A stretch of DNA of 64,000 nucleotides from a virus. Taxonomy: Duplodnaviria > Heunggongvirae > Uroviricota > Caudoviricetes. Where the stretch lies: the IMG/VR virus record IMGVR_UViG_2851938318_000001; one strand, written 5' to 3'. The translations under genes and the position numbers were made by a program. The notes below the pieces were generated by a model. That model searched no databases, was not told the DNA's origin, and was given only the letters and a program-made list of their open reading frames with translations. Within the stretch, counting starts at the first letter, position 1. Each line of letters begins with the position of its first letter. This document shows positions 22,722 to 63,962 of the stretch, piece after piece.

Positions 22722-22913
22722 ATCTATAAGGGTAATAACCGGCTAAGTCCGGTTATTATTTTACATGCCATTCATTTAAAACTCTTTCAATGCTACGCTG
22801 TATAAATATATAAGGTTAAAAGCCTGAATTGATTATTTATTTAGGGAACACCTTCGACGATCTCGCTTTTATTTCTAGGACTTTCATCCCTGCAAAAAAT
22901 TTAAAAAAAACAC

Positions 22914-22941
22914 TTGCAATCTTTTTTCACGTATCGATAAT
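22914..22941 (+). promoter_or_regulatory. sigma70-like promoter (TTGCAA-16-GATAAT)
   Basis: -35/-10 hexamers about 70 bp upstream of 23008 ORF, within AT-rich intergenic region. Confidence 0.4.
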
Positions 22942-23007
22942 TGAACTCGTCGAAAGCGAGCTAGCTAACGACAGTAAAAAATAAATTCATTTTAATTTTT
23001 CGTAAGG

Positions 23008-23667
23008 ATGTCCATCATGGCTAACATTATCATTTCTAAAAAATCCATCATTGAAGCTGCTTCCATTGTATCCGATGAACTGCGCGAAAAAGCAGATCTG
23101 GCAACTCAAACATATAACGAACATTATAAAAATGGTACGCACACTAAAGCAGACAAAGCAAATATGCAAGCTGCGACCACTAAACTTGCTTACTTCATCA
23201 ACAACGTTGTAAACGCTGTTGAAGACGAAAAATTATGCTCTGTTTTCTACTATGCAATTAAAGCAAGCAAACAAGCGCCAGAAGTATTTTTCCGTGATGC
23301 AATGACTAATAGTTATTCACTGGAAAAACTGGTTTATCTGGTTAAATCCATTAAAGCTGGTAAATGTGTTTATTCCGTCGCTGATATGTCAGGATCTCGT
23401 GTATTCGCTTTAATCGATATGATTAACGACGAGATCGACACGTTCACCAATGGCGCTGTTTTCGATTTAATGAATGAAGCTAAAAAAGCGTGTGAAATTA
23501 AATTGGACGCTGGATATACTCAAGCCAACCAGTTGATCAATCTTTGCGAACGTCTCGGACTTGTTGAAAAAGTCAAAGGAGCTGGGAGCGCCAAAGCTGG
23601 TACGCAGCAATATCGCTTCATTAAAAATGATTTCTACAATTATTTAGCTGATGCTTTCAAAGCGTAA
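23008..23667 (+). CDS. hypothetical protein
   Basis: 219 aa AT-rich ORF with RBS taaggatg; terminator hairpin 23678-23700. Confidence 0.45.
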   Translation: MSIMANIIISKKSIIEAASIVSDELREKADLATQTYNEHYKNGTHTKADKANMQAATTKLAYFINNVVNAVEDEKLCSVFYYAIKASKQAPEVFFRDAMTNSYSLEKLVYLVKSIKAGKCVYSVADMSGSRVFALIDMINDEIDTFTNGAVFDLMNEAKKACEIKLDAGYTQANQLINLCERLGLVEKVKGAGSAKAGTQQYRFIKNDFYNYLADAFKA

Positions 23668-23677
23668 TTAATGGAAT

Positions 23678-23700
23678 CAAGCGCCCACTTTGGGCGCTTT
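23678..23700 (+). terminator. rho-independent terminator
   Basis: gcgcccactttgggcgc followed by ttt. Confidence 0.55.
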
Positions 23701-23920
23701 AAAGGAGCTTTCAAAAATGGTCAGCTATGACAAGATCCGCGCGGAATATCGCGCAAAGTATCGCGCTTATAAACTGGAATTAATCGATGATTTGATCGCG
23801 CAACGCGACCAATTAAATTTTACGTTTTCTGATTTGCTTAACAGTAAACGAGATTGTAAGCGTAAACGTGAATATTTACGTTTAAGCGCATTAATCGGAA
23901 AACTGCAAAATTCTATTTAA
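23690..23920 (+). CDS. hypothetical small protein (likely start 23707)
   Basis: RBS aaaggag precedes ATG at 23707 (MVSYDKIRAEYRAKY...). Confidence 0.4.
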   Translation: MGALKELSKMVSYDKIRAEYRAKYRAYKLELIDDLIAQRDQLNFTFSDLLNSKRDCKRKREYLRLSALIGKLQNSI

Positions 23921-23940
23921 TTTTTTTAAGGAGCTTAATC

Positions 23941-24168
23941 ATGGTTATTTTCATCTCTGGCGTAAATATCAATAATCATACTCTTGTTTATGATATTGCT
24001 GGTTTAGCTGGATATGCTCTAAGTTCTGAAGTGGTTGATGAAACAACGTTTAAAATAAACATCAATGACGTAGAACATAGAGCGCGCGTAGGAATCAATG
24101 AAGCTGATGTTACTTTAATGCTTCAAGAATTTTTAAACGCTGGCTTTAATATTCACTTAGAAAAATAA
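23941..24168 (+). CDS. hypothetical small protein
   Basis: 75 aa ORF with RBS aaggag; followed by two hairpin terminators. Confidence 0.4.
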   Translation: MVIFISGVNINNHTLVYDIAGLAGYALSSEVVDETTFKININDVEHRARVGINEADVTLMLQEFLNAGFNIHLEK

Positions 24169-30843: not shown

Positions 30844-32877
30844 TTACTTAACCTGGTGGCCAGGTTTAGCACCAGCATCCGGGCTTAACAGGAAGATATC
30901 TTTCCCGCCGGGGCCAGCAGCCATCACCATGCCTTCAGAGATACCGAAGCGCATTTTACGTGGTGCCAGGTTAGCCACCATAATGGTGTGACGACCAATC
31001 AGTGCCTGTGGATCTGGATAAGCGGAACGGATGCCTGAGAAGACATTACGCTTTTCACCACCGAGATCCAGCGTCAGGCGAAGCAGTTTGTCAGAACCTT
31101 CTACAAACTCTGCGTTTTCAATCAGCGCCACGCGCAGGTCAACTTTGGCGAAGTCGTCAAAGGTGATAGTTTCCTGAATCGGGTCGTCAGCCAGTGGGCC
31201 AGTTACCGGTGCGGCTGTGGCTTTCACTTCTTCTTTGGATGCTTCCACCAGTGCTTCAACCTGCTTCATATCGATGCGGTTATACAGTGCCTTGAACGGA
31301 TTCACTTTATGGCCCAGCAGCGGTTGCTGGATACCATCCCAGGTCAGTTCTGTATTCAGGAATGCTTCTGCACGTTCAGTCAGTTTCGGCAGTACCGGCT
31401 TCAGGTACGTCATCAGCACGCGGAACAGGTTAATGCCCATAGAGCAAATCGCCTGCAGATCGGCATCGCGTCCTTCCTGCTTCGCCACCACCCACGGAGC
31501 CTGTTCATCGACATAGCGGTTAGCCAGGTCAGCCAATGCCATGATTTCACGGATAGCTTTACCAAATTCGCGGCTTTCCCACGCTTCACCAATCACTTCA
31601 GCGGCATCAGTGAAGGTTTTGTACAACTGCGGGTCAGCCAATTCGCTTGCCAGCACGCCGTCAAAACGCTTGTTGATAAAGCCCGCATTACGAGAGGCCA
31701 GGTTAACCACTTTGTTCACGATATCGGCATTCACGCGCTGAACGAAATCCTCCAGGTTGAGATCGATATCATCAATGCGCGAAGAGAGTTTCGCAGTGTA
31801 GTAGTAACGCAGGCTGTCGGCGTCAAAATGATTCAGCCAGGTGCTGGCTTTAATAAAGGTGCCGCGAGACTTGGACATCTTCGCGCCGTTCACCGTCACA
31901 TAGCCGTGAACAAACAGGTTGGTCGGCTTGCGGAAGTTGCTGCCTTCCAGCATGGCAGGCCAGAACAGGCTGTGGAAGTAAACAATATCTTTACCGATGA
32001 AGTGGTACAGCTCGGCGGTGGAGTCTTTCTTCCAGTATTCATCGAAGCTGGAGGTGTCGCCGCGTTTGTCGCACAGATTCTTGAAGGAACCCATGTAGCC
32101 AATCGGCGCGTCCAGCCAGACGTAGAAATATTTGCCCGGTGCGTTCGGAATTTCAAAACCGAAGTACGGCGCATCGCGGGAGATATCCCACTGTTGCAGA
32201 CCAGATTCAAACCACTCCTGCATTTTGTTTGCCACCTGCTCCTGCAACGCACCGCTGCGGGTCCATGCCTGCAACATTTCGCTGAAAGAAGGCAGATCAA
32301 AGAAGAAGTGTTCGGAATCACGCATTACCGGCGTAGCACCAGAAACTACCGATTTCGGCTCGATCAGTTCAGTAGGGCTGTATGTCGCGCCGCAGACTTC
32401 ACAGTTATCGCCGTATTGATCCGGCGCTTTACATTTCGGGCATGTGCCTTTCACAAAACGGTCCGGCAGGAACATGCCTTTTTCCGGGTCGTACAGCTGA
32501 GAGATGGTGCGGTTTTTAATAAAACCGTTCTCTTTCAGGCGAGTATAGATAAGCTCGGACAACTGACGGTTCTCTTCGCTGTGCGTCGAGTGATAGTTGT
32601 CATAGCTGATGTTAAAGCCTGCAAAATCAGTCTGGTGTTCCTGACTCATTTCGCCAATCATCTGTTCCGGTGTGATACCAAGCTGCTGTGCTTTCAGCAT
32701 GATCGGTGTGCCGTGGGCATCGTCGGCACAGATGAAATTAACCTCGTGGCCGCGCATTCGCTGGTAACGAACCCAGACATCAGCCTGGATGTGCTCCAGC
32801 ATATGGCCGAGGTGGATTGAGCCGTTAGCGTACGGCAGCGCGCACGTCACCAGAATTTTCTTCGCGACTTGGGTCAT
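30844..32877 (-). CDS. metG: methionyl-tRNA synthetase (E. coli chromosomal type)
   Basis: protein from [31 protein letters not shown]... with KMSKS motif, recognised as E. coli MetRS; ORF-track start 33006 is upstream extension. Confidence 0.95.
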
Positions 32878-33034
32878 AGTAGGCATTACTTCTTTGTAGT
32901 GAAAAGGGGCTTGATAGTAACAAAATGGCCTTATGTCTGCCATGTGATAACAGCATTTCTCATAAATGATTAAATGCCGTAGCTGGAGTACACTACAAGG
33001 CGACAATTGCGCAAATTAAAATAAAGGAGACGGG

Positions 33035-34135
33035 ATGAGCGAGTCCAAATCGCCGGATGCCCTGAGAGCAATGGTAGCCGGTACGCTGGCTAATTTTCAG
33101 CACCCAACCCTGAAACACAATCTGACTACGCTTAAAGCGTTACACCATGTTGCGTTGATGGATGACACACTGCATGTCGAACTAATCATGCCTTTCGTGT
33201 GGAATAAGCCTTTTGAAGACCTGAAAGAGCAATGTAGTGGTGATCTGCTCCGTATCACTGGCGCAAAGGCTATTGACTGGAAGCTGTCGTACAACATTGC
33301 CACGCTTAAGCGCGTCAAAAACCAACCAGGCATTAATGGCGTGAAGAACATTATCGCCGTCAGCTCAGGCAAGGGCGGCGTTGGTAAATCCTCCACGGCG
33401 GTAAACCTGGCACTGGCGTTGGCTGCTGAAGGTGCGAAAGTTGGTATTTTGGATGCCGATATCTACGGGCCATCAATTCCAACCATGCTTGGCGCGGAAA
33501 ACCAACGTCCAACCTCACCGGACGGTACTCACATGGCACCGATTATGTCTCATGGACTGGCAACCAATTCAATTGGTTATCTGGTAACTGACGACAATGC
33601 GATGGTGTGGCGTGGTCCGATGGCGAGCAAGGCGTTAATGCAGATGTTGCAGGAAACTCTATGGCCTGATCTGGACTATCTCGTTCTCGATATGCCGCCG
33701 GGTACTGGTGATATTCAGCTGACGCTGGCGCAGAACATTCCTGTAACTGGTGCTGTTGTGGTAACTACGCCGCAAGATATCGCGCTGATCGATGCGAAGA
33801 AAGGCATTGTGATGTTCGAAAAAGTCGAAGTGCCGGTACTGGGTATCGTCGAAAACATGAGTGTGCATATTTGCAGTAACTGCGGTCATCACGAGCCAAT
33901 TTTTGGCACCGGTGGCGCACAGAAGCTGGCCGAGAAATACAACACGCAGTTGTTAGGCCAAATGCCACTTCATATCTCTCTTCGTGAAGATCTGGATAAC
34001 GGAACACCAACCGTTATTAGTCGTCCAGATAGCGAATTTACGGCTATTTATCGTGACCTCGCAGATCGCGTTGCTGCCCAAATGTATTGGCAAGGTGAAG
34101 TAATACCTGGCGAAATCGCATTCCGCGCAGTGTGA
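33035..34135 (+). CDS. apbC: Fe-S cluster carrier ATPase ApbC/Mrp (E. coli chromosomal type)
   Basis: P-loop AVSSGKGGVGKSS and CxxC (CSNCGH); divergent from metG as in the E. coli chromosome. Confidence 0.93.
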   Translation: MSESKSPDALRAMVAGTLANFQHPTLKHNLTTLKALHHVALMDDTLHVELIMPFVWNKPFEDLKEQCSGDLLRITGAKAIDWKLSYNIATLKRVKNQPGINGVKNIIAVSSGKGGVGKSSTAVNLALALAAEGAKVGILDADIYGPSIPTMLGAENQRPTSPDGTHMAPIMSHGLATNSIGYLVTDDNAMVWRGPMASKALMQMLQETLWPDLDYLVLDMPPGTGDIQLTLAQNIPVTGAVVVTTPQDIALIDAKKGIVMFEKVEVPVLGIVENMSVHICSNCGHHEPIFGTGGAQKLAEKYNTQLLGQMPLHISLREDLDNGTPTVISRPDSEFTAIYRDLADRVAAQMYWQGEVIPGEIAFRAV

Positions 34136-39746: not shown

Positions 39747-41432
39747 TCATTTAACGCGTTTGAAAACGTATACGCTGACTGTGATCCCGGTATCTTCAAA
39801 CTCGTTGGTAAACGACTTCCCTCTGGCATAAACGTAATTATCCATCGTCATCCAGTCCAGTATTGGCGCAGTGCCCGGCAATACTGCTACAAGACGCCCT
39901 CCGACTTTCAGATGCCCCAGCGCAGCAAGCGTGTGTTCTCTATGACGACCAAGCGAGTACGGCGGGTTCATAACGATTTTGTCGAACTGATAACCTGCGT
40001 TGTCCTCAGACCACTTTATGAAGTCGCAGCAAATCGTGTTCGTATACCCTTTTCCACGCAGGATATCAGCGAAGAGAGGTGCGATTTCTATGCAAGTAAC
40101 ATCTTCCAGATCGGCGTTAATATAGGCCAGAAGATCCCCACGTCCGGCTTGAGGCTCCAACAGCTTCTCACCAGGCTTCAATTCAGTGGCTCTGGCAACG
40201 TACTCAGCAATCAAGCGTGGGGTAGGGTAGAACTGGTGTGATTTTGTATCCGGTATTAAACCGGTAGCCACAATCGTATTTAGCGTATGGCCGATGTCAT
40301 ACGGGAACTGCCAGTGCTTTTTCTCCTGCACGCCGCCAATGAAGCTCAGTGTGCGCTCAAGCTCTTCCACCTGCGACTTCTGGAGAGCTGAATCAGAGAA
40401 GTACCATACGCCTTTGTCTTTGCTTAATCGCCCGTCACGAAGCGCAGTGCGAACCGGCACGGAGATCGTCTTCTGGATTAACCCGAACTGCTTTGGTGCC
40501 CGTGTTTTTGGCGCGGTGCGACATGGCGCGGGGATTGCAGCAGGCATACTGTAAGCCAGCACCTCATTCAACTTCCAGGCCACGTCAGGATGTATTTCAA
40601 AGTGAACGTTGCCGTTCTTGAACATCTTCACGCGCATTAGATTTCCATCGACGTTCATCCAGTCACCGGTCTGGCAGTCGTTTGCCCGATACGCAGCTGA
40701 TAGCACCTCAGCAGTGCGGTTGATGGTAATAAATTCTTTGTGCGCGAAGAAATGAAGCAAGACACGCAGATCGTCGATATAGTCCTCTTTGCGATAGTTC
40801 ACACTAACGCTGTCCCGCCAGAAATCAGAAATGCAGTCAGCGATTATCAGACGTTCGCTGAAACCGTTTGTCTTATTTGTCTTGTGCGCAGGACTCAGCG
40901 CCTTAAACAAGCCATACACGCGCTCAGAGAGATATTTGTGCCTGTCATTCAGCAAATTAAGCATCGTGGGTATGACCGTTTCTGCTTTGAACTCCGGTAC
41001 ACCAACGAACTCTTTAACCTTCATCTGGTAGCCGGTTCTGTCAGTTTTGATGACTTCCTGTTTGCCCTCTATAAACTGCTCGCGCCACTCATCTCGACGG
41101 GAAGCAGGCATGATCAGCAAAACGTTAGTCATGTCCGTGACCTTCCTCCAGTACTCGGCCCAAATATTCTGTTTCACCCATTCCAGATCGACTTTATCCA
41201 ACCAACCTCGATTTAAACGCGAGCGATCTTCATCTGGTCGATGGTTTAGTCTCAGCAGGCGATTAATCATGTTGTGGCGTTCGTCGCCATAAACGAAGTC
41301 GTGTACCTGATACATGAAGGCGATCTCTTTCTCGCACTCGGCCACAATTTCGTGGATGACGTTCATTTCCTGCCGATAGTCGATAGCAGTGTTTGAGTTG
41401 GCATCGTCGATGATGGAAAGGGCTGTATTCAT
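39747..41432 (-). CDS. DNA N6-adenine methyltransferase with large N-terminal domain
   Basis: motif I LEPQAGRGDLL followed by motif IV NPPYS near C-terminus. Confidence 0.6.
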   Translation of the reverse strand: MNTALSIIDDANSNTAIDYRQEMNVIHEIVAECEKEIAFMYQVHDFVYGDERHNMINRLLRLNHRPDEDRSRLNRGWLDKVDLEWVKQNIWAEYWRKVTDMTNVLLIMPASRRDEWREQFIEGKQEVIKTDRTGYQMKVKEFVGVPEFKAETVIPTMLNLLNDRHKYLSERVYGLFKALSPAHKTNKTNGFSERLIIADCISDFWRDSVSVNYRKEDYIDDLRVLLHFFAHKEFITINRTAEVLSAAYRANDCQTGDWMNVDGNLMRVKMFKNGNVHFEIHPDVAWKLNEVLAYSMPAAIPAPCRTAPKTRAPKQFGLIQKTISVPVRTALRDGRLSKDKGVWYFSDSALQKSQVEELERTLSFIGGVQEKKHWQFPYDIGHTLNTIVATGLIPDTKSHQFYPTPRLIAEYVARATELKPGEKLLEPQAGRGDLLAYINADLEDVTCIEIAPLFADILRGKGYTNTICCDFIKWSEDNAGYQFDKIVMNPPYSLGRHREHTLAALGHLKVGGRLVAVLPGTAPILDWMTMDNYVYARGKSFTNEFEDTGITVSVYVFKRVK

Positions 41433-41535
41433 AATTGCACCATTAAGAAGTGATTTGTTTAATGGTGCAATTATTTCAAAAATGAAAAGGTACTAAATAG
41501 AAATAAACAGGCAATCCTTCAAATAAAGGCATTGG

Positions 41536-42434
41536 CTAATCATACTTGGAGGTATTTATCACCAGAATTTTGTTTGTATAAATCTTCTTAATATCCCATG
41601 TGACATTACCGGAATACCATTGACCGTTATATACTTGGTTTCCAGTTGCACCTGTCATTGTTACATAGACAGGTCTGTCGTAATCGGTTCGTCTATAGTT
41701 ATATACCCCAACCATAGCAGGCATTACCGCACATGGATACCCCATATCTATTGTAAATTGAGGGTCAGAAATAGTGATAAGTTTCGCATCAAGGGGCATC
41801 ATCTCACCGTGATACACCATTGCGCCTGCGCTGTTATACATGGCAATGCCATAGCCAGAATGTGGTAACACCATATCAGAAAAAGCATAAACTGTTATTG
41901 TTCCGGGGCTACCATTTACCTGATGCAATCTGAGAGCATTGTATCCGTTACTATGCTCATGAATAAACATCATGTTCGCCTTATTACTGCTTTTTATGAA
42001 GAAAAAGCATGATTTGTTTGATGGAATTGATGTTTGAAAAACAGAACCTTTAGATGTAGACATTGTCCCTTTATTAATCAGATTTTGCGGAGTAAATTCT
42101 GGACTCATCCACAAACTTCCATCTGATTGTGTAATTGACATCCCGAACATAATTATCCCCAGTATGTGTATATGTAAGAACCAAGCCCCGTATATAAATT
42201 TGACCAACTAACCGTATTTCCATTAATAGTAACTGTTGGAACAGGTAAATTAATGTAGTTGTCGTTGTTAAGAGGCATCAATGACCACACGGCATGTAGC
42301 GATTTACCCGGTGGCGGATTGGAGTACGTCTTAGAGCCTGATGACGCAGTAAATCGATCAAGAAAAAAAATAGGAGTAAGGAAGCCAGTAACGTTAATTC
42401 CTTTATTGTTGTAAATCCCTGTACCGTATGCCAT
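41536..42434 (-). pseudogene. low-GC Tyr/Asn/Gly-rich gene, apparently frameshifted or two overlapping ORFs
   Basis: ORFs 42153..42434 and 41536..42207 overlap in different frames; markedly AT-rich. Confidence 0.3.
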
Positions 42435-42489
42435 TTTTCATCCTTGTTTTTTATCAACACAATATGGCCGATCATGCGGCCATATCAGA

Positions 42490-43059
42490 TCAATTAGAGC
42501 TTTGAAAGGCTTTGTGTGGCTGTGTTGCGAGGTTATGTCGATGGCTTAACTCACGCATCATGTCTTCAAGCCGACTCTTTGTGTCGTCGAGTTGGTCGGC
42601 CATTGCTCCCAAAAGCTGACGAACGGCCATCGGATCATCGCTGTTTAGTGATGGCATTTTATAACCCGCCTGAGAAGACATAAGATTGAACGCAGACATC
42701 AACATCGTTAGAGAGGATTTAAGCCCAGCAATTTCACGATCTTTGCTGGCAATAATCGCCTCACTCTTGTTAGTGTCATCAGTTCGTTGAGTCTCGCTCA
42801 CCATATCCAAAGTCGCCTGCAACTTATCAGCGCGCTCTTTTTCAGCAAGATAATGAACACCGAAATGATGTGCTAAAGCTACAACCTGAGTTGGCTCTTC
42901 AAAGGTGGACTCAAAATTAAGTGCTGTAACCACTCTCTCAAATATGGAAACGTCTTCTATTCCTCGAAGAATGGCTAACATTTTGACCAGTTCATTAGCA
43001 TCCATTTCTTCGAATAAGGCGTTTTGTTCATCAGCTATCGCTTTGCATTTCTTGCACAT
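42490..43059 (-). CDS. hypothetical early protein
   Basis: 189 aa ORF directly downstream of promoter unit. Confidence 0.45.
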   Translation of the reverse strand: MCKKCKAIADEQNALFEEMDANELVKMLAILRGIEDVSIFERVVTALNFESTFEEPTQVVALAHHFGVHYLAEKERADKLQATLDMVSETQRTDDTNKSEAIIASKDREIAGLKSSLTMLMSAFNLMSSQAGYKMPSLNSDDPMAVRQLLGAMADQLDDTKSRLEDMMRELSHRHNLATQPHKAFQSSN

Positions 43060-43077
43060 GTGTTTTTCCTAATGCTT

Positions 43078-43112
43078 AAACAAGTTGTTTTCTTATTGGC
43101 TTTATTGTGATG
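43078..43112 (-). promoter_or_regulatory. conserved early promoter/operator unit
   Basis: aaacaagttgttttcttattggctttattgtgatg. Confidence 0.5.
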
Positions 43113-43356
43113 TGGCATAAAAGGGGAGCAAGCTAAACGTAAAGGTGCAAACTCTCTATTTCGGTCAACGAAACACAAGGGCCATTTGGCCCTTGTCATT
43201 AACACGTTGCTTTACGGACTAGCGGATAAGCGAAGTAGATCGCCAGACCAATGAGGACGCCATCAGAAATGACAGACATCATCTTTCCCGTAAAATCCAC
43301 CAACACCGCCATCACCAGAAGAGCAATGACGGTCACAAGCCGGAATCTCTCAAGCA

Positions 43357-43782
43357 TTAGAGATAAGCATCCAGTGACAACTGAAGCGCCTGTGCGATCT
43401 TTTTCAGTGCCAGCTCTTCTTGTTCGCCAATACCGTCTTGGTCGGCAATATCAAGGCACAGACACAGTACATCTACTGCATCATTAGTCCCGGCCACATC
43501 AGCCAGCTCACGTAAAGCCTGGGCATTAGCGCGGCGCGGTGAGGCTTCGTATTGAGCACGGATATTGGCGCTCATTTGGGCAATCTCACCAGCAAACGGA
43601 GAAAACGCAGGCAGAGCTGCAATTGTTTTCTCAAGAATGGAAATTTCCTTTGCGTCGCATGTGCCATCGGCATAGGAGATCATGTACGCGCCCCACACGG
43701 TGGCTTCAACCGCATCTCGGTTCTCCATTTTTTTGACCTCGATAACAGCTTTACGAGTTTTCTTTTTGAATAAACCTAACAT
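43357..43782 (-). CDS. TerB-like domain protein (putative)
   Basis: two ADG/QDG-x-D/E segments (YADGTCDAKEISILEK, DQDGIGEQEELALKKI) resembling TerB metal-binding motifs. Confidence 0.35.
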   Translation of the reverse strand: MLGLFKKKTRKAVIEVKKMENRDAVEATVWGAYMISYADGTCDAKEISILEKTIAALPAFSPFAGEIAQMSANIRAQYEASPRRANAQALRELADVAGTNDAVDVLCLCLDIADQDGIGEQEELALKKIAQALQLSLDAYL

Positions 43783-43805
43783 GTGCTTTCCTTTTGTTAT
43801 TTGTT

Positions 43806-43828
43806 AAAACAAGTTGTTTTCTAGTTAC
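43806..43828 (-). promoter_or_regulatory. conserved early promoter/operator unit (core palindrome)
   Basis: aaaacaagttgttttctagttac. Confidence 0.45.
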
Positions 43829-43875
43829 ATGAATTGCTTACGAAAAGACGGTCAATGCATATGCACTAACAACCG

Positions 43876-44073
43876 TCAGAAATAACCAAGTACCGAACCG
43901 ACTGGAAAAACAAAAATCCCAACAACACGAGCCAAGGTCATACCAGCCTGAAACTGGAGATCACCAGAGCAAACGAGTTTTACAATGTTCGATACCCAAC
44001 CGGCGGCCATGAGAGCTATGAAAGCCAGAATCGCCAGCCAAGTTTTTCCAAAGTGATTTGAAAACCAGTTCAT
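43876..44073 (-). CDS. small membrane protein (2 TM)
   Basis: 65 aa with two hydrophobic helices. Confidence 0.4.
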   Translation of the reverse strand: MNWFSNHFGKTWLAILAFIALMAAGWVSNIVKLVCSGDLQFQAGMTLARVVGIFVFPVGSVLGYF

Positions 44074-44321
44074 ACAACCGCCTTAGTCACAGCATGATCC
44101 TGAGTAACTGGATGAACTTGAGGTATCGCATCCACCGTCATCCCATCCAGAGTGACAGGACGCTCTACTGGAGTGGTGGTAATTGTCGTCGACGGAGGTG
44201 TGGTGATGGATGAACCCGGCATCAAAAGGCTCTGGCCGGCTGGAACGGCTACCGTCGCCAGTGAAACTATAATGAGAACGTAGGCCATTGGTTTCAGCCT
44301 CTTTCTTTGAAAATTTTCCAT
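44070..44321 (-). CDS. small membrane-anchored protein
   Basis: 83 aa, N-terminal TM helix then Thr/Pro-rich segment. Confidence 0.4.
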   Translation of the reverse strand: MENFQRKRLKPMAYVLIIVSLATVAVPAGQSLLMPGSSITTPPSTTITTTPVERPVTLDGMTVDAIPQVHPVTQDHAVTKAVV

Positions 44322-44722
44322 TCGAACTGTCCTTGTTGTTTTTCTCCTTCACTAAAGGCCGTGTACTTTTCGCTTCGCGTGAAGAACCAGAGGTAACAAT
44401 CGCCCCCACGTTCGCAACAACTGACGCTTGCTTATCTAAACGTTCATTCAGCAACCGAACGGCAGTCTCTAGTTCATCAAGACGTGACAGAACACGACCG
44501 CTAAATAATTCGGCCAAAATTTGACGTAGTGAACGAGGACGTTTAGTTGCAGAAGTGAAATAGGTTTGACGTGCCATGTGGACTCCATCCAGTGTCAGAA
44601 AGAGTTGCGGCTGGCGATTGCCAGCCGCCTTTCTCGTTCCATCCTGGAACTGTGTCTTACCGACACATTGTCATCCTGACGCCGATAAGATACATGATTT
44701 AAAATGATAGGTAAACACTTAC

Positions 44723-45370
44723 TTACTGCTTGTTGTAAACAAAACCAATATCTTTCTTGTGAGGCATATCTGCTGCGGAAAAAGCTGCGATCTTCGCGAG
44801 TCGATCACATATTTCATTTTCACGATGCCCGGCGTGACCTTTAACCCACTTCCAGCGAACATTATGTCGACTTGCAGCCTCATCCAGACGCTTCCACAGA
44901 TCAACATTCTTTACCGGTTTTTTGTCAGAAGTCACCCATCCATTGCGTTTCCACCATTTCATCCACTGTGTCATGCCGTTTTTCAGATACTGGCTATCAG
45001 AGTGCAAAATAACGTTGCATGGATATTTCAAACGCTCCAGCCCGATAAGTGCCCCCATCATCTCCATGCGGTTATTGGTGGTGCTATGAAAACCATCTGA
45101 GAACTCGCGTTCCTCACCACGATACTGGAGAACTATACCGTAACCGCCCGGGCCACCCGGATTTTTAAGGCAAGAGCCATCACTGAAGATTTTCACGGTT
45201 TTAAGCTGGGGATTGAACTCTACGACAGGCGTTGTGGAATTGGTGCGGGGAGAATTTTTGTTTTTGGCTTTTTTGCGAGTTTTTTCTTGCGATCGGGCTG
45301 GTGTCTTCGTCGTCATATAAACTCCTGAATCAAGCGCCGCGCCGATTTTTTTCCTCGCGCGTGCGCACAC
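44723..45370 (-). CDS. rnhA: ribonuclease HI with basic N-terminal extension
   Basis: near-colinear with E. coli RNase HI ([38 protein letters not shown]). Confidence 0.85.
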
Positions 45371-45900
45371 GCGTGCGTGTTAATAATTATTAAAATAAAC
45401 AAATTACTTCCCAGAACAGGTTTTTATAAACCTGAACTGAACGAACGAAGTGAGTGAAGTTCACCTCGAACGAAGTGAGAGGTTGTCTTTTCAGGTAATA
45501 TTCTCCCAGGGAGGTGAGTATAAAAATCCCTCACCAACCTGGTCGTTTCATAACCTGAAAAGTTATGGCCTAAGTCTACTGCCAGCTTAGACTTGGGAAG
45601 TTATGGATGACAGCACCCCAGAACCGAGATCTTCCCACACTTTATGAAGGGGAGTACTGGATTCAACCTCTCGAAACACCCCAGACTCGACAATCATAAA
45701 GTGACCCTTGTCTCCGCTCACTTTGGTTCCCCCTTACCCGACACCTAAACGGCACCGGTTCTACGCTGGTAGTGAGCTTTTTTAAACCTGACGCCAGTGA
45801 CGCTTACCCCCACCCATCAGGTCGAGTCTCCAGTCTACGACTGGAAACTATCAGATCTTAGCACTTACAATTCATTTTATGAATAGTTTGTACTTATCTA

Positions 45901-46155
45901 TCATTTCGATTGATTATTTTCTCGACCATGTAGTTGAACATTCAAGGCAAACACCTCGTTGATCAACTCACCTAAAAGCTGTTCAACAAGTTCGCGATGC
46001 TCCCCAAGATGCAAGCACTTAATTGCCCATTCGTACAAGTTGAAAGCCTGCTCGCGGTCTTTCATCATTTCACGGGCCTGGGCCAGAAAATCGCTCTCTA
46101 CGAGCGCAACGACATTAGTCGGGTATGACATGTTAGTTTCCTTAAAGTGATTCAT
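45901..46155 (-). CDS. hypothetical small protein
   Basis: 84 aa ORF. Confidence 0.35.
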   Translation of the reverse strand: MNHFKETNMSYPTNVVALVESDFLAQAREMMKDREQAFNLYEWAIKCLHLGEHRELVEQLLGELINEVFALNVQLHGRENNQSK

Positions 46156-46316
46156 AAAATCGATTTTAAAGCGTCTGGGAAGGGGTTCTAGTGGATTCTG
46201 TAGTGATGTTCAGGTCTGGAGTCTCTGATACAAAACAGCCTGCTTCCGTATATTAATAATTAATATGTAGTTATTTATATATACAGAAGCAGGCTAATTA
46301 CAGACGCCAGAACAAA

Positions 46317-46910
46317 CTAAGCAGCCTTCTTTGATGGTCTTTTTTTCCTGATCACATTCGCAGGATCATACCCTCCCAGACTTTTCATGACGTCCAAAGG
46401 GATCTTGCTTATAGAGTGCCCAGCGTCCTGACAGAATCCTCGAAAAACAACGAGCATACTGCCACCTGGGTTGATGTTTACTTCTACCTGACCCAGATTG
46501 ACGTCAGGCTCGACAAACGCTACGCGGCCACCAGACAGAATAATCGTCTCATTCGCACACTCTGTTGCACGCTCATACCACTTTGTATCTAGGGATTGAG
46601 GAATTAGCATCACTGTTGTAACTCCGCGAGCCTGCTCACGTATAGCCGCATCAATCCAGGGGGAGATTTTGGAGTAGGGTGGATTGAGGAAGGCAATTGT
46701 ACCTGGCTGTCCCCATTCAGATTTCAAAGCATCACGCTCAACGCCTATGAAATTAGGCAGCTTTGCATTGTCCTTGTTGCAGGCAACGTCAACATCAAAT
46801 GTCACTCCAAGATAACGTTGAATGGCAGAAAACAGCCAGTCAGGTGTTCTCCAGAGGTCACGAAGAGAGTTGTCGCGCTTTCGCTGTTTGATTTTTTCGG
46901 CTGCAATCAT
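46317..46910 (-). CDS. phage Dam-type DNA N6-adenine methyltransferase
   Basis: FLNPPYS motif, about 200 aa. Confidence 0.7.
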   Translation of the reverse strand: MIAAEKIKQRKRDNSLRDLWRTPDWLFSAIQRYLGVTFDVDVACNKDNAKLPNFIGVERDALKSEWGQPGTIAFLNPPYSKISPWIDAAIREQARGVTTVMLIPQSLDTKWYERATECANETIILSGGRVAFVEPDVNLGQVEVNINPGGSMLVVFRGFCQDAGHSISKIPLDVMKSLGGYDPANVIRKKRPSKKAA

Positions 46911-47093
46911 CTTCTTTCTCGATAGGTAAGTAAATACCTATTTTTGCATTTGATTTTATGTCTGGCAATCAAATAAAACGCGCCAGAAATGCAAACGAGA
47001 AGCTCTCTGGCGCGTTTTTGTGGTGCTGGGTATGTGATTGGCTTACCCAGCACTATAAAGCTCTCTATGGGCTTTATTTTCAGTAGGGGAACG

Positions 47094-48060: not shown

Positions 48061-48625
48061 TTTACACAATTTCAGAGGGTAATTTAAAAAATCCGTACTT
48101 ATTACGTGCCTTAAAGAAGCATTGCATCATTAAGTTTGTGTCATATAAGGCACTATGTGCTTTGGCATGATCGTATATAAAGCCAAGAGAGAAGGCCAAC
48201 TCTTCAAGGCGGGGACGTTTACCGTCTTCTGTGGCCCACAATCCCGATAACATAGTATCTATAACAGGAACTTCTGGCAGTCTTACTCCATACCCTGAAA
48301 ACTCGTGTCGAATAAATGGTATATCAAATGCTTCGCCGTTATGAGCAACCCACACACTACATGCCCCCATATAAGCGCCAATTTCGCTGGCATGATTTGA
48401 CAACAAAGGTTCAGCTGCGAGCTGTTCCAATGAAATGCCATGAACGGCTTGAGCTTTCGGATCTATGTTTCTGCGAGGGTTAAAACGCATCTCCAGACTA
48501 TCAATATGTCTCTGTGTCTCCAGTTCATAGCGGGTAATTGCGATTTCAATAATTTTATGACCAGCAAGGAAATCCAGTCCCGTTGAACCGCCCCGGGTTT
48601 CCTGGAGAGTGTTTTATCTGTGAAC

Positions 48626-49516
48626 TCAGGCTGCCAGATCATCGTTTCCGATGGAAGCATAATAAGCTTTTTCTGCTTCTGCCGGAGGAGTATGGCCCAG
48701 CCTTCCCAGCAATCGTCGATTGTTATACCAGTCCACCCACGTTAGTGTGGCCAGTTCCACTTCTGCACGGTTTTTCCAGCTCTTACGGTGTATTACCTCC
48801 GCTTTGTAAAGACCATTGATGCTCTCAGCCATCGCGTTGTCATACGAGTCGCCTGTACTCCCTGTTGATGCCAGTAATCCGGCTTCTTTTAGTCGCTCCG
48901 TATAGGCCAGTGACACATACTGAGAGCCTTTATCGCTGTGATGGATGGTGCCAGACGGACGACGGGCCCACAACGCCTGCTCCAGCGCATCCAGCACGAA
49001 TGTCGTTTCCATAGACGATGAGACCCGCCACCCCACGATGTATCCGGCAAACACATCAATGATAAACGCCACATAGACGAAGCCCTGCCATGTGCTGACG
49101 TAAGTAAAATCAGCCACCCACAGCTGGTCAGGTCGTTCTGCCACGAACTGACGGTTTACGCGGTCGCCTGCGGCAACGGCTTTCCGGCTGATGGTCGTAC
49201 GGACCTTTTTACCCCGGAGAACACCGGCAAGTCCCATAACCGCCATGAGACGTGCCACTGTACATCTGGCCACCCTGATTCCTTCCCGTAACAACTGACG
49301 CCAGACTTTACGCACACCGTACACCTGATGATTTTCATCGTATACGCGCTGTATCTCTCTCTTCAGCCAGTCGTCGTGCTGCGCACGGGCACTGCGTTTA
49401 TCCGGATGATGTCGCTGTTGCTGACAATGGTAATACGTTGACGGGGCAATATGCAGTTCGCTGCATACCGGTCCGACCCCGTACTGCTCACGCAGCTTAT
49501 CCAGCAGTGGCATCAT
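48626..49516 (-). CDS. IS629-type transposase OrfB (DDE)
   Basis: overlaps orfA in -1 frame; DDE integrase-like sequence. Confidence 0.85.
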
Positions 49517-49839
49517 TTTTTCCAGAGGCGGTCGAACTCCGCCTTCGCAAAATAAGCGGAAGCCTGGCGAAGGATATCGTTACTGCGGCGCAGTTCACGA
49601 TTTTCACGTTCCAGCTCTTTCAGACGCTGACGTTCAGCGCTGGTGAGCCCACCATCACCGCCCCCGGTATCCCGCTCATGCTGGCGAACCCAGACACGCA
49701 GAGTCTCCGGCGTACAGCCAATCTTTGGGGCAATGGAACAAATTGCCGCCCACTGTGAGTCATATTCATCCTGACTTTCCAGAACCATACGAATCGCCCG
49801 CTGACGGACTTCGGGGGAAAAACGAGTATTTTTAGTCAT
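49513..49839 (-). CDS. IS629-type transposase OrfA
   Basis: [31 protein letters not shown]... recognised as IS629/IS3411 OrfA. Confidence 0.9.
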
Positions 49840-58393: not shown

Positions 58394-59137
58394 TTACCAT
58401 GTTCCCCATATAGGGTTTTCCAATAATCTCGCCTCCAACGAATTGGCTACTATTGCCGTTTGCAACGTTGGTTGGGGATAGTTTGCAAAGTCTGAATACT
58501 CATTTTCCTGCGTGACACGTTTATCTGCGGCATGTTTAACACCACTTGCTATGAAATGACGCATGATGCCCAATAGCCTCCGACTGTCTGCACTATCGTT
58601 TGCTAAAACATGAGGGAGCTGAAGTTCGATTTCTACCATTTCTCCATACTTACCAACAAACTGTAGTTTGTCCGCACTGTACTTTTTATCCCTCCTTTGG
58701 ATAAGGAAACCAGTAAAAGCATCACCTGGCGATGCCAAACTATCCACCCGCTTATTGGCAAGTCGAATAAGGTTCGTGAAAGCCATACAGTGATGCGCAC
58801 CCATTCCCCCAAAGAACCCTTCGCTATTAATGTTAAGATCTTCAGTTTCATGGGATGCAATAAACCCAGGCCCGACGTTGGGAAGATATCCCCCCTCAAC
58901 AAAAGGATTAATCAGGATCGGCGCAACACATCCAGGTGGTAGTGATTTCAAACTTTGCATCAATGGCGTCTCGGATATTAGACCAAGCAACGCGGCGAAT
59001 TGTACTCCGTCAATATTGTTGCTGCCCCACAGAATACGTGGAGCCGCACCATTGGAAGTATGCCCATTGATCAGTTTTATCGACTGCATCACTGCAAATA
59101 CCTGCAAAAACTGCGAGCGGCTTAATTTAAACGACAT
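58394..59137 (-). CDS. hypothetical protein
   Basis: 247 aa ORF overlapping SbcC-like start. Confidence 0.4.
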   Translation of the reverse strand: MSFKLSRSQFLQVFAVMQSIKLINGHTSNGAAPRILWGSNNIDGVQFAALLGLISETPLMQSLKSLPPGCVAPILINPFVEGGYLPNVGPGFIASHETEDLNINSEGFFGGMGAHHCMAFTNLIRLANKRVDSLASPGDAFTGFLIQRRDKKYSADKLQFVGKYGEMVEIELQLPHVLANDSADSRRLLGIMRHFIASGVKHAADKRVTQENEYSDFANYPQPTLQTAIVANSLEARLLENPIWGTW

Positions 59138-61043
59138 AGCTGCGCCCCTCTTTAACTTCCAGCGTAATAGTTTCCCGGAACCATGACTTCATCTCTTTAT
59201 GGGAGATAATCAGCACAGTACCTCGCTCGCGAGCTTTGGACTCCAGAATACCCATGAGGCGTTCAAGACCGGCTGTATCGAGTGCATCGTCAATTTCGTC
59301 GCCGATAAACAAATCGATGTTTTTACTCGCCCGGTTACTAACCAGATCCTGCAATGCCAAAGAACACGCAATGCGAACCTTCCGCTTCTCACCACCAGAG
59401 AGGGTCTGGAACGACTTACTTGAACCTTTCTTCTGCACACTAATGTTGAATTTGTCGCGATACTCACCTTTTTTAGTGACATCCATCGTCGACCACTCAG
59501 CAGTAATATTCCCGTCAGACAACGTATTGAGATACTCGGCAGTGCGTGTATTCAGGAAAGGCGTAACAGACGTCAAAATATGAGAACGCACCCCGGCAGG
59601 AGAGTAGACCTGACGAGCTTTTTCCAATAGCAACGTTTGTTCCTGAATAGCCTTCAACTCATCTTTTAAGGACTTGAAGGTAGACTTACTGGATACCAAG
59701 TTATCTTCGTGTCTGGCGATAAGAGCAATAAACGGATTAATCTCTTTTGATATACGATCGACCTCAGTACGAGCACGAGTCACAAGAGACTCAATAGCAA
59801 CAACCTCCTTCTCACGATGACGCAAAGATGAGAGTTGTTTCGTAAGCTCTTCAATCCGGGCAATGATAGCCGTTACATCAGGTGTCGTTTTAACAAGGGC
59901 AGACTCAATGCTTAACGCTTTCTCAAGATTCGTTTTGTGTTTAGCCATTGCCTCTGCAAGTGTCTTCGCCTGACCAATTTCCTGACGTGCTTGTTCAATG
60001 AAACTCTCCTTCACCGTTGATAGATCTTCTTCGCAGTAGGCTTTGCCACAAGTAGGGCATGGTGATCCCACTTTAGTACCAACCTCTTCTGCTTTGGTCT
60101 TAAAATTACGCGCGCGGTTCATTGCATCAGCCTGACTATTTTCTGTAGCTTTGATGCTTGCCCGAATATCAGTTATCGCACCACGAACTTTGAGCAACTT
60201 GGCGTCATGTTCTTCTTTTGAGGCTAACTTTTTGCGCTCACTTTCGATTGCCTTCTCGGTATCACGTATCTGTTCGGGAAGAGTGCGGATCTCAAGTTCA
60301 ACTTCCGTTAACTCAACTTCGGCACTGGCCAGCCCAGCCAGGGCATCGTCATAACGTTTAGAACGCTCTTGCTCCCATGATTCAGAGGAGGCTTTCGCTG
60401 ACTCAATTTCTGACTGTGTTGCCTCAATGGTCGAGATTGTCGACTCCAATTTGGTTTTAACCACATCCATACGTGCGGCAGCTGCATTAGCTCGCTCACG
60501 AGCAATAGCGTAGGCGCGTGTCAGTCTGTCAACGCCAGCGGCTTCTTCTACGATGGTTTTGAGGTTTTTGTCGGACATTCCAGGTAAATCTGGCATAGCT
60601 TCTTGGCTCGCATAGATGGAAGCCATGAAAACCTCTTTAGATGCACCGATCAGACGCTCGACGAACTCCTGCGTCAGCGCATCTTTGCCTTTCGTCATAT
60701 CGCCATCTTCACCACGAACGATAAGACGATTTTTGAACTCTTTGTGTTTACGGTGACGAATGATTGCGTATCTCTTGCCTTCATCCTCGATGGTTACTGC
60801 AACACGACAGTTCTTTTCATGGTCGGTAGACAACACATCGTCACCCTTCACACCATGAGCTGTTTCGCCATAAAGACACCACATCAGGCTATTCATTAGA
60901 GTTGACTTTCCAGAGCCATTACTTGATGCGGAACTATCATCACTATTAACACCCTGAATAAGCACTAAACCACGCTGATCTAACTCGACCTCCGCGCTGG
61001 CGATAGCCATAAAATTCTCAACCTGGAGCTTTAAAAACTTCAT
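59127..61043 (-). CDS. SbcC/Rad50-like recombination ATPase
   Basis: Walker A GSGKSTL, long coiled coil with central CxxC hook (CPTCGK), signature LSGGEKRK, Walker B LFIGDEID. Confidence 0.8.
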   Translation of the reverse strand: MKFLKLQVENFMAIASAEVELDQRGLVLIQGVNSDDSSASSNGSGKSTLMNSLMWCLYGETAHGVKGDDVLSTDHEKNCRVAVTIEDEGKRYAIIRHRKHKEFKNRLIVRGEDGDMTKGKDALTQEFVERLIGASKEVFMASIYASQEAMPDLPGMSDKNLKTIVEEAAGVDRLTRAYAIARERANAAAARMDVVKTKLESTISTIEATQSEIESAKASSESWEQERSKRYDDALAGLASAEVELTEVELEIRTLPEQIRDTEKAIESERKKLASKEEHDAKLLKVRGAITDIRASIKATENSQADAMNRARNFKTKAEEVGTKVGSPCPTCGKAYCEEDLSTVKESFIEQARQEIGQAKTLAEAMAKHKTNLEKALSIESALVKTTPDVTAIIARIEELTKQLSSLRHREKEVVAIESLVTRARTEVDRISKEINPFIALIARHEDNLVSSKSTFKSLKDELKAIQEQTLLLEKARQVYSPAGVRSHILTSVTPFLNTRTAEYLNTLSDGNITAEWSTMDVTKKGEYRDKFNISVQKKGSSKSFQTLSGGEKRKVRIACSLALQDLVSNRASKNIDLFIGDEIDDALDTAGLERLMGILESKARERGTVLIISHKEMKSWFRETITLEVKEGRSYVV

Positions 61044-61318
61044 ATAACACCTCTGATACCGTGTGTTAGCTTTTGGCCTTCTTTCAATCTGAACTCCGTA
61101 TGCGCCGGGAAGGATCTGCGCCTCAATACGCCTTTTCTTGTTAACCTTCCAAGATAAAACGCTACGGGATTTCCTTGTGGCGGGTAGGGCTTGTGAAACA
61201 TCACCGTCTGGCCTCGTTCAAGTCTTTTCATCGTGATGGCAAAGTCTCGAAAGCTCCCATAACGACTTTGCTTCACACAGCCTCCGAACTCTCCGCTTCG
61301 GTGAGGATTTCCTGACAC
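61040..61318 (-). CDS. hypothetical basic protein
   Basis: 92 aa ORF between SbcD- and SbcC-like genes. Confidence 0.3.
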   Translation of the reverse strand: MSGNPHRSGEFGGCVKQSRYGSFRDFAITMKRLERGQTVMFHKPYPPQGNPVAFYLGRLTRKGVLRRRSFPAHTEFRLKEGQKLTHGIRGVI

Positions 61319-62358
61319 AAAATATCCAATTTGCTCAGATCAAATCCGCCGTCAGTATCGTGGACAATCTTGCAATAAGCAGATACCGACTCTCCCAGGC
61401 TATCGATTTTGCTGGTTTCAGTTGTGCTGGCTGTCCCTTCCATCATTGATGACTTACGGATGAAGTTGCACACGACACCTTTTGCACCCATTGTTTTGAG
61501 GATGTTCTGGTACTTAATGCCTTCTTCATCGTTCTCAATTACGGCGCGGAAACGCACGTAGTTGCCGCGAATTTGGTCATCAGCAACATCATCTTCCAGG
61601 TTAATGAATTTAGGCGCACTGGTTTCGTAGTGACTGAAACTGCCGTCCGGGTTTACGATCATGTAGCCAGCCAGAGATCCAACATCTCCCCAATTTTGAT
61701 GAGTCAGTGCACCGACACTGATAACTCCAGGAATGACCTCTTTGTGGTTGTGGTAATGCCCACTAAGCACGAGACGAAAGCCGATATCCTTTAACTCCTG
61801 CGCATCGATACCGACGTCAGGCATTGTTGGAATGGCTTTGTTAATGGATGTATGGATAACAACGTCATGATTATCACCTTCTACGCTCTTACGTAATGCT
61901 TTCAGATCGCTGATAAGCTCCGCATGATTGTTACGCCAGCTAATCAGGTGGACAGTCACATCACCAATTTTTATTGAGTGTGGGCGCTTGCCACATACGA
62001 TTACCACGCCGATAGAACTCAGCGATGCTGCTGCGTTGGCGCTATATACTGAATCGTTGGTTTCAAGATCGTGATTACCGGCCAGCATTACTACTGTCAG
62101 ATCAAGCTCGTTGATAATCCACTTGTACGTTTCAGTTACGTAATGCAAAACAGAAGGGGACACAGTTCCTCGGACGTGAAATGTATCACCGGCAACCAAC
62201 ATGTACTTACAACCGGCCTTCTTCATGGCGATGGCTGCTTCTTTCGTTGCTTCCAACTGTATTTCAAGTCTGGAGTTAAGCCCCTCAGCGTTCGTCGTGG
62301 AGAACGCATCCCATTTGTGGTAGTGGCAGTCAGAAATGACGCCGTATGGCAAAGTCAT
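61273..62358 (-). CDS. SbcD/Mre11-like nuclease (calcineurin-like phosphoesterase)
   Basis: metallophosphatase motifs DCHYH, GDTFH, GNHD; paired with SbcC-like gene. Confidence 0.8.
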   Translation of the reverse strand: MTLPYGVISDCHYHKWDAFSTTNAEGLNSRLEIQLEATKEAAIAMKKAGCKYMLVAGDTFHVRGTVSPSVLHYVTETYKWIINELDLTVVMLAGNHDLETNDSVYSANAAASLSSIGVVIVCGKRPHSIKIGDVTVHLISWRNNHAELISDLKALRKSVEGDNHDVVIHTSINKAIPTMPDVGIDAQELKDIGFRLVLSGHYHNHKEVIPGVISVGALTHQNWGDVGSLAGYMIVNPDGSFSHYETSAPKFINLEDDVADDQIRGNYVRFRAVIENDEEGIKYQNILKTMGAKGVVCNFIRKSSMMEGTASTTETSKIDSLGESVSAYCKIVHDTDGGFDLSKLDILCQEILTEAESSEAV

Positions 62359-63344: not shown

Positions 63345-63420
63345 TTATCCACTGGATAGATCCAAATAAGAGATCCCAAGTAAGATCAAATAGAAGATCC
63401 AAAGAGATCCCCGATCGCCT
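63345..63420. repeat. DnaA-box-like site plus phased AAGAGATCC-type repeats (about 11 bp period)
   Basis: ttatccact at 63345; taagagatccc / aagtaagatc / aatagaagatcc / aaagagatcccc. Confidence 0.5.
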
Positions 63421-63454: not shown

Positions 63455-63565
63455 GCCATCCACTATGGAGAGCAAAGAAACCTCTGTAGAGAGCTGAATA
63501 ACCGCTATGAAGAGTAAAACAACCACTCTGGAGAGCTGTATATATCCACTGTAGAGAGTAGAGCA
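63455..63565. repeat. iteron array 1 (5 x about 21 bp, core AWCCRCTRTRGAGAG)
   Basis: atccactatggagagc, aacctctgtagagagc, aaccgctatgaagagt, aaccactctggagagc, atccactgtagagagt. Confidence 0.75.
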
Positions 63566-63730
63566 CATTGTCTTTTATGGATAACTTAATGACTTAATTC
63601 TTCATTAACATACTGATATACATAGATATATTTTAAACTCTACTCTTAGTCATGATTCTTATGTCCTTAAATATCCACAGAAGAGTAGAGTTACCTGTTC
63701 TTGAAATCCTCTGATTTTTATCCACAGGCC
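63566..63730. promoter_or_regulatory. AT-rich spacer with DnaA boxes (origin-like)
   Basis: TTATCCACA at 63718-63726, ATATCCACA at 63673-63681, tatggataa at 63576; inverted agagtagag repeats. Confidence 0.55.
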
Positions 63731-63734
63731 CGAT

Positions 63735-63800
63735 CCAGTAATTCAGATCACAAAGAGAACCAAAGAGACCCATAAAGACCCAATAAGATCCCCGCCCACC
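63735..63800. repeat. second set of phased AAAGAGAMC repeats
   Basis: caaagagaacc / aaagagaccc / ataaagaccc / aataagatcccc. Confidence 0.5.
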
Positions 63801-63838
63801 TCAAACCGTTGTGCCATCTGCCTTCAGACATGATCGAT

Positions 63839-63962
63839 ATCCACTATAGAGAGCGAATAATCCACTATAGGGAGCAAAGCAACCACTATAGAGAGGAGAA
63901 AAACCACTATAGACGGTAGGATAACCGCTGTGATGAGTGCTACTATCCACTGTAATCAGCAA
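63839..63962. repeat. iteron array 2 (6 x about 21 bp)
   Basis: atccactatagagagc, atccactatagggagc, aaccactatagagagg, aaccactatagacggt, aaccgctgtgatgagt, atccactgtaatcagc. Confidence 0.75.

Follow-up and report, generated by a model that had tools for sequence, protein, structure and literature searches.

Two solitary N6-adenine methyltransferase genes, one with a DUF4942 module, in an SSU5/pHCM2-type phage-plasmid

Two genes in a viral stretch of DNA of 64,000 nucleotides (IMG/VR record IMGVR_UViG_2851938318_000001, Caudoviricetes; hereafter the window) can be compared with several described systems. We call the genes ORF A and ORF B (open reading frames A and B); they bound the flagged region at positions 39747-46910. 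M.EcoT1Dam and M.EcoVT2Dam have been reported to methylate GATC, and a 35% identical relative of T1 Dam to methylate GATC with marked off-target activity (PMC4996451; PMC6602927). M.TaqI, M.BseCI, CamA, and type I HsdM have a target-recognition domain after the catalytic core or work with a separate S subunit. M.EcoGIX and M.BceJIII are orphan methylases of mobile elements, encoded in plasmid leading regions, that are single-strand-specific and, by acting on the DNA of the element that carries them, blunt restriction at entry. The DarB protein of phage P1 is a virion component with a helicase domain.

We predict that ORF A and ORF B both encode solitary N6-adenine DNA methyltransferases that are co-conserved in SSU5/pHCM2-type phage-plasmids and mark the element's own DNA against restriction, with a role for ORF B at GATC and at the plasmid origin as well. 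We consider this account probable, though well short of certain.

ORF A (39747-41432, minus strand) is an intact gene for a DUF4942-methyltransferase of 561 amino acids and is identical to the PGAP gene WP_001090447.1 of pRM9131-1, a 117-kb IncFIB plasmid of E. coli RM9131. Its C-terminal catalytic domain (residues 396-561; 39750-40247, minus strand) is a gamma-type amino-methyltransferase core with a Rossmann fold superposable on M.TaqI, HsdM, and similar enzymes. The motifs run in the order X-I-II-III-IV with NPPY, as in gamma-class N6-adenine DNA methyltransferases. They include a motif-X-like QFYPTP (residues 400-405), which, ahead of motif I, we take to be typical of the HsdM/TaqI/Eco57I type, motif I as EPQAGRGDL (residues 426-434), and NPPY itself (residues 489-492). 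An alignment of 27 family sequences, with identity down to 34%, has invariant residues at Q400, F401, Y402, P403, and P405, at P427, A429, G430, and G432, at E449 (motif II), F471 (motif III), and N489, P490, and P491 (motif IV); D470, beside F471, is at least 90% conserved. M.TaqI is the best sequence match in the PDB, and every PHROG and PADLOC match is a DNA methylase, including PHROG 6263 ("DNA methyltransferase"), which matches the full length (1.3e-299). Relatives of ORF A carry matches to PF02384 (N6_Mtase); for ORF A no Pfam methylase model scores above its cut-off.

Whereas M.TaqI, M.BseCI, CamA, and HsdM place target recognition after the core or in another subunit, ORF A instead has an N-terminal module of ~390 amino acids. 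No target-recognition domain lies C-terminal to the core, and the protein stops 69 residues past NPPY. The catalytic module (residues 401-519) is related to that of a "DarB-like antirestriction" protein of Pseudomonas phage Skulduggery (30.6% identity), and the core also matches giant phage proteins (PHROGs 15406, 11358, and 10691). The DarB-like and giant PHROG proteins are 1,300-3,900 amino acids long by profile length, whereas ORF A is far shorter, has no helicase domain, and gives no sign of being packaged. M.EcoGIX was ruled out as a characterised relative of ORF A; the M.EcoGIX/M.BceJIII family is beta-class, with DPPY and PF01555, in contrast to the NPPY of ORF A and ORF B, neither of which matches PF01555.

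The N-terminal module of ORF A (residues 1-395; 40248-41432, minus strand) matches the Pfam family DUF4942 (PF13708) at residues 140-295 (positions 40548-41015), with 74 bits against a gathering cut-off of 25. It has no structural counterpart among PDB folds, and a search of PDB sequences with a profile of the domain gave nothing below an E value of 0.05. The module would most likely supply DNA binding and target selection for ORF A.

ORF B (46317-46910, minus strand) is an intact gene for a phage Dam-type N6-adenine methyltransferase of 197 amino acids and is identical to the PGAP gene WP_000559568.1. The protein passes the cut-offs of PF05869 (131.8 bits against 28.1; 2.5e-38) and of TIGR01712 in NCBIfam (113.9 bits against 97.05; 5.1e-33). 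Its conserved blocks are RDLWRTP, DVDVA, NPPYS (within FLNPPYS, residues 74-80), and GGR..F, and N76, P77, P78, Y79, S80, D41, and A43 are invariant in an alignment of 13 sequences that includes T1 Dam. ORF B has 39% identity to orf32 of the Stx phage VT2-Sakai (E 2e-31), which is the only annotated methylase-like gene of that genome, and 25% identity over 185 residues to phage T1 Dam (E 1e-18), which itself matches PF05869 (1.7e-70). Of phage records, 2,119 contain a homologue, among them those of T1-like, Stx, Vibrio, and lactococcal phages. The giant VT2-Sakai orf71 was also considered as a carrier of a methylase module and ruled out, as it has no similarity to ORF A.

Like T1 Dam and VT2-Sakai Dam, ORF B is a small, single-domain protein (RDLWxTP, D.D.A, NPPYS) that is phage-borne and has no restriction partner. 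Unlike T1 Dam it lacks a 40-residue N-terminal extension and an internal insertion, and it lies in the replication and nucleotide-metabolism operon of a phage-plasmid rather than in a nin region. Judged from these relatives, the target of ORF B is most likely GATC, and its specificity may be relaxed. A non-specific methylase of the Hia5 or M.EcoGII type was rejected for ORF B, because those enzymes belong to another family with another motif order (FxGxG, then DPPY). ORF B is ordinary, one more small phage Dam.

An earlier note, drawn from the letters of this DNA, had described two genes of N6-adenine type: a 561-residue enzyme with motif I ahead of NPPY and a large N-terminal domain of unknown function, and a short Dam-type enzyme with FLNPPYS. 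The coordinates and the motifs are as described, ~395 residues precede the ORF A core, the family assignment is borne out by homology and conserved motifs (for ORF A also by fold), and the large domain keeps its description as one without known function, given a match to DUF4942 and to no PDB fold. The motifs of the two proteins are far beyond chance.

Neither gene has a nuclease partner, as the earlier note had also stated for the window. No restriction endonuclease was found among ~35 open reading frames of the window scanned with Pfam and PADLOC, and no nuclease was found among the neighbours of both genes or the other unannotated open reading frames of the window by Pfam, PHROG, or PADLOC. 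Likewise, no restriction enzyme is annotated anywhere on pRM9131-1, and no restriction-type nuclease is conserved beside 76 members of the ORF A family. The locus has neither a cognate nuclease adjacent to a methylase, as in Type II restriction-modification, nor a nuclease domain fused to one, as in Type IIG/IIL enzymes. From its domain matches, the SbcCD-like pair (59127-62358) appears to serve recombination and repair and not to be a restriction enzyme. A superfamily 2 (SF2) helicase of 519 amino acids (18439-19998) has a "ResIII" helicase domain; it lies 20 kb away and has no match to a Pfam nuclease domain.

Over the 7.1-kb flagged region, identity is 100% with pRM9131-1 and 95-98% with Escherichia phages CMS-2020a, Cyrano, and PhiR41_1; 58% of the region aligns with Salmonella phage SSU5, at 83.6% identity. 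The pRM9131-1 plasmid encodes terminase, portal, capsid, tape measure, and tail proteins, and for replication and metabolism RepA, DnaB- and primase-like proteins, nrdAB, thyA, dhfr, ligase, and a DNA polymerase III alpha subunit. From these identities and the gene set of pRM9131-1, the element in the window is an SSU5/pHCM2-type phage-plasmid. The word "phage" in the earlier note was nearly right and needs only this extension.

ORF A and ORF B co-occur in the same order on contigs of ~100-118 kb, from Escherichia to Xenorhabdus, Providencia, and Morganella. Between them (41433-46316, minus strand), the content varies among related phage-plasmids, and 41536-46155 can be regarded as a variable cargo region. 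Here it encodes membrane proteins like ST31/ST32 of T1 and gp22/23 of N15, phrog_5508, DUF3927, TerB, two small open reading frames, and an RNase HI of 215 amino acids, in which the Pfam match begins at residue 58 (an N-terminal extension of ~57 residues). In relatives (loci L085-L089) the interval contains genes for Tad2-like (anti-Thoeris family), HD_4, T5orf172, DUF8377, and UmuC-like proteins.

The ORF A family is widespread on mobile elements. There are 338 homologues of ORF A, and near full-length matches with at least 44% identity are mostly on contigs of ~100-118 kb. A profile of the N-terminal module matches 1,579 clusters (50% identity), 421 of them with E of at most 1e-30, and nearly all of the best 150 of these 1,579 clusters share one architecture, the module followed by a C-terminal core of ~165 amino acids, in a protein of 510-580 amino acids. 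By tblastn the family is present on 2,534 plasmids. Among them 1,360 are typed as conjugative, with most listed examples 190-420 kb in size at ~31% identity and the one examined, pSH111_227, of type IncHI2, and 1,077 are typed as non-mobilizable, including phage-plasmid records of ~110 kb. The family also occurs in 230 phage records, including temperate phages of Aeromonas, Vibrio, Pseudomonas, and Marinomonas. When one genome per species was scanned, 274 encoding stretches were found, and the 80 of them that were kept are almost all from Proteobacteria.

The only papers found to mention DUF4942 name it in passing, in the Shigella SRL island, where it follows YfjX/KlcA, RadC, and YeeU/V/W, and in SPI-3 (PMC6980539; PMC10893270). 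The DUF4942 proteins of IncHI2 plasmids (such as pSH111_227), CP4-like islands (L0010-type), the SRL island, and SPI-3 share the two-module layout of ORF A over the full length, at ~31% identity. Like ORF A they are uncharacterised and mobile-element-borne, often with an orphan methylase or antirestriction gene near. The phage-plasmid clade, in contrast, is a distinct branch, 45-100% identical internally, and sits in a phage early/replication operon, whereas the plasmid and island genes lie in a leading region or at an island end. Literature searches on the two WP accessions found nothing, and searches on SSU5/pHCM2 together with methyltransferase, with a phage-plasmid survey as the one hit consulted, found nothing that characterises either enzyme.

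Flanking open reading frames were clustered across the 76 family loci, and no neighbour of the ORF A family is conserved in more than 8 of them. Those recurrent neighbours that were scanned belong to mobile elements (YqaJ, DUF932, a Gp3-like directionality factor, integrases, and CI-like repressors). In an Erwinia locus (L051) the order is N6_N4 methylase, Antirestrict (PF03230), DUF1380, DUF4942-methylase, PsiB, and DUF905, a gene set that resembles a conjugative-plasmid leading region. The N6_N4 methylase there is of the M.EcoGIX type and lies ~2.4 kb upstream of the DUF4942-methylase (genes within 4469-9506 of that locus). On the IncHI2 plasmid pSH111_227 (locus L092, 3561-7845), an alpha-type Dam lies 2 kb from the DUF4942-methylase. 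A second, unrelated orphan methylase is found within 8 kb at ~10 of the 76 loci (for example L018, L037, L043, L032, and L010); in phage-plasmids this second enzyme is of the PF05869 family.

Taken together, these features suggest how the two enzymes may work. In ORF A the DUF4942 module would target DNA, and the small gamma core, which has no C-terminal target-recognition domain, would methylate it. Since neither enzyme has a nuclease partner, both would mark DNA rather than police it. We infer that the substrate of ORF A and ORF B is DNA rather than RNA. The element's own DNA would become methylated, in a lysogen probably along with host DNA, and this would protect progeny or transferred copies from restriction systems that have a matching specificity. 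ORF B would likely have the further role of maintaining full GATC methylation when lytic or plasmid replication is rapid, including at a cluster of six GATC sites in the P1-like origin.

The earlier note had interpreted the genes as orphan adenine methylases with an anti-restriction purpose. The first part agrees with our results; the second is plausible from context and is not established, and any effect of either gene on restriction or replication is predicted here from sequence. A role in establishment or anti-restriction is plausibly favoured by the ArdB/KlcA-type and psiB neighbours in the Erwinia locus, the second orphan methylases, the presence of the family on 1,360 conjugative plasmids, the relation to a DarB-like protein, and the Tad2-like genes in the interval of relatives.

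Several observations weigh against this account. Identity to distant members is 40% in the N-terminal module of ORF A and 41% in the core, so the two are equally conserved, and the module is rich in invariant polar residues. Such conservation is atypical of a variable target-recognition domain, and the module could instead act enzymatically or bind a partner. The literature yielded no characterised member of the DUF4942 family. All hosts of these elements are enterobacteria with a Dam of their own, where any protection from GATC methylation by ORF B would be superfluous. Passive avoidance of restriction sites is also a major shield, and methylation is not the main one against type II enzymes with 6-bp sites.

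Site avoidance in the window is strong. Fifteen palindromic hexamers are below 0.25 of expectation and ~15-20 are nearly wholly avoided; the median ratio of observed to expected copies is 0.69 for palindromes against 1.00 for other hexamers (p = 2e-13). GAGCTC (13.6 expected), GGCGCC (13.5 expected), CTCGAG, and GGATCC have no copies. AAGCTT (18.2 expected), CTGCAG (16.3), GAATTC (10.7), AGCGCT, GCATGC, CCATGG, and GGTACC have one each, with expectations of 7-18 for the single-copy hexamers. Several of the few surviving sites lie in an IS3 element (48664, 49196, 49401, and 49636) and in a host-like metG gene (31453 and 32829). These counts indicate that restriction pressure on the element is real, and because heavy avoidance has been retained, blanket non-specific methylation by either enzyme is not likely. 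Phage T1 has a similar avoidance pattern, and VT2-Sakai much less. The EcoRV site GATATC, which is not avoided, was considered as a clue to methylase specificity and ruled out, being equally unavoided in T1 and VT2-Sakai. As T1 shares both the avoidance and the unavoided GATATC, the pattern is uninformative on methylase specificity.

An alternative at least as concrete for ORF B as anti-restriction is a role in replication control, which it may have also or instead. The P1 plasmid origin requires methylated GATC, and the right end of the window contains a P1-oriR/RepFIB-like plasmid origin (63340-63960). It begins with a DnaA box (TTATCCACT, 63345), followed by a 58-bp cluster of six GATC sites in AGATCC repeats of ~11 bp (63359-63416), an arrangement like that of P1 oriR, and by five 21-bp iterons (63458-63560) and an AT-rich spacer. 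The average is one GATC per 234 bp. A decayed second copy of the origin with 5-6 more iterons lies at 63718-63955, where three of the GATC sites now read GAAC or GACC. The pRM9131-1 record begins with repA, and from its gene order the origin would lie just upstream of repA. By analogy with P1, a GATC methylase borne by the element could serve origin control.

In its wider form, this alternative has both methylases serving the physiology of the element. ORF B would methylate GATC at the origin, and possibly at packaging sites or promoters, setting replication timing and copy number as Dam does at P1 oriR, and ORF A would be an epigenetic regulator. We regard this as possible and distinctly less probable than the marking of DNA against restriction. 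The placement of the six GATC sites between DnaA box and iterons favours it, as do the loss of three GATC in the presumably non-origin second copy and the little protection that GATC methylation would add in Dam-positive hosts. ORF B also seems to be equipped with a terminator and promoter of its own: a terminator-like GC hairpin with a T run (~46972-47019, minus strand) and a promoter-like TTGCCA-17-AAAAAT with an extended TG (46940-46968, minus strand; promoter scan) lie just upstream of it, both being consensus matches only. However, host Dam should suffice for the origin of a low-copy plasmid, and PF05869 enzymes are equally common in virulent phages without a plasmid origin (T1-like phages, lactococcal 936). 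For ORF A there is no link to any regulatory site, and the contexts of its family on mobile elements are anti-defence neighbourhoods.

The conservation of the DUF4942 module invites a more specific proposal about ORF A. Rather than reading sequence in the conventional way, the module may be of a new kind, for targeting or for catalysis, and tie the methylase to a DNA state (entering or replicating DNA, single strands) or to a partner protein, and DUF4942 methylases would then be an establishment class specific to mobile elements and distinct from all characterised types. This proposal draws on the core-like conservation, the architecture fixed in ~1,500 clusters, and the second orphan methylase adjacent in phage-plasmids, in pSH111_227, and in the leading-region-like locus L051, and we consider it rather unlikely as it stands.

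It is less likely still that ORF A methylates RNA (m6A or m2G in rRNA or tRNA) or protein, with the DUF4942 module recognising that substrate. Its weak NCBIfam matches are to Erm and KsgA, it passes no Pfam DNA-methylase family, and its N-terminal domain shows more conservation than a classical target-recognition domain should. The QFYPTP motif, the match to M.TaqI, the uniform PHROG and PADLOC matches, and the PF02384 relatives all point instead to DNA, and the genomic company of the family consists of genes for DNA entry, anti-restriction, and other DNA methylases.

Very improbable is the reading that ORF A belongs to a cryptic restriction or defence system, as its modification half or in a fused form, with DUF4942 as the nuclease or a MADS-like or helicase-linked partner elsewhere: the PADLOC matches of ORF A to mad2 (its best, a generic domain match to the core) and of an ABC-type ATPase (16346-17011) to mad3 and mad8, the ResIII domain of the SF2 helicase, and the invariant H, D, and N around a beta-hairpin and helix (residues 266-295 of ORF A), where a metal site is imaginable, speak for it, but the PADLOC matches are generic and that to mad3 spans the P-loop only, the mad-like genes are 22 kb from ORF A in different operons, the helicase has no Pfam nuclease domain, and no nuclease or other gene is conserved beside the 76 family members. 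Membership in MADS itself was rejected, as that system is a single 8-gene operon in which mad6, mad7, and mad8 are mandatory, and the window has no such operon.

Both genes are already annotated in public records; what deserves a test is the DUF4942 methylase family. Clinical Escherichia, Klebsiella, Salmonella, and Enterobacter commonly harbour SSU5-type phage-plasmids, some of them with resistance genes, so how these elements establish in new hosts is of practical interest. ORF A is the more useful of the two genes, with a family found on plasmids (over half of them conjugative), in phages, and in pathogenicity islands. These enzymes may explain part of the restriction evasion by these elements.

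A perfect 16-bp inverted repeat (41431-41474, minus strand) spans the Shine-Dalgarno-like GGUG of ORF A and abuts its AUG. RNA folding predicts a hairpin of -20.6 kcal/mol (z -6.9) that could possibly sequester the ribosome-binding site. As a conserved regulatory element the hairpin was rejected, since the stable fold is not kept in seven relatives, including those from Kluyvera, Klebsiella, Enterobacter, and Morganella; it is lineage-specific at best.

The window differs from pRM9131-1 in that its 3'-5' exonuclease gene is split by the IS3-family element. The element (48626-49839) has two transposase open reading frames (48626-49516 and 49513-49839), and the exonuclease (RNase_T) remnant at 48062-48490 has 142 amino acids, against 185 in the intact gene of pRM9131-1. 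The SbcCD-like pair, which adjoins the origin, consists of an SbcC-like protein (638 amino acids) and an SbcD-like metallophosphoesterase (361 amino acids), and this end of the element is arranged differently from pRM9131-1. A full-length metG (methionyl-tRNA synthetase, 720 amino acids) and a gene for the Fe-S carrier ApbC lie within 30844-34135; some of the few restriction sites avoided in the backbone are found there, which suggests recent acquisition of these genes from a host.

Next to the terminase genes, 15459-19998 contains an operon of two ParB_N-domain proteins, the ABC-type ATPase, and a 296-amino-acid protein without a match. This operon is divergent from the 519-amino-acid SF2 helicase gene, and the best PADLOC matches of the helicase are to PbeA. 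A low-GC island at 20000-24000 (37-38% against ~47% elsewhere) encodes a FljA-like "repressor of phase-1 flagellin" (22200-22721) and several open reading frames without a family match.

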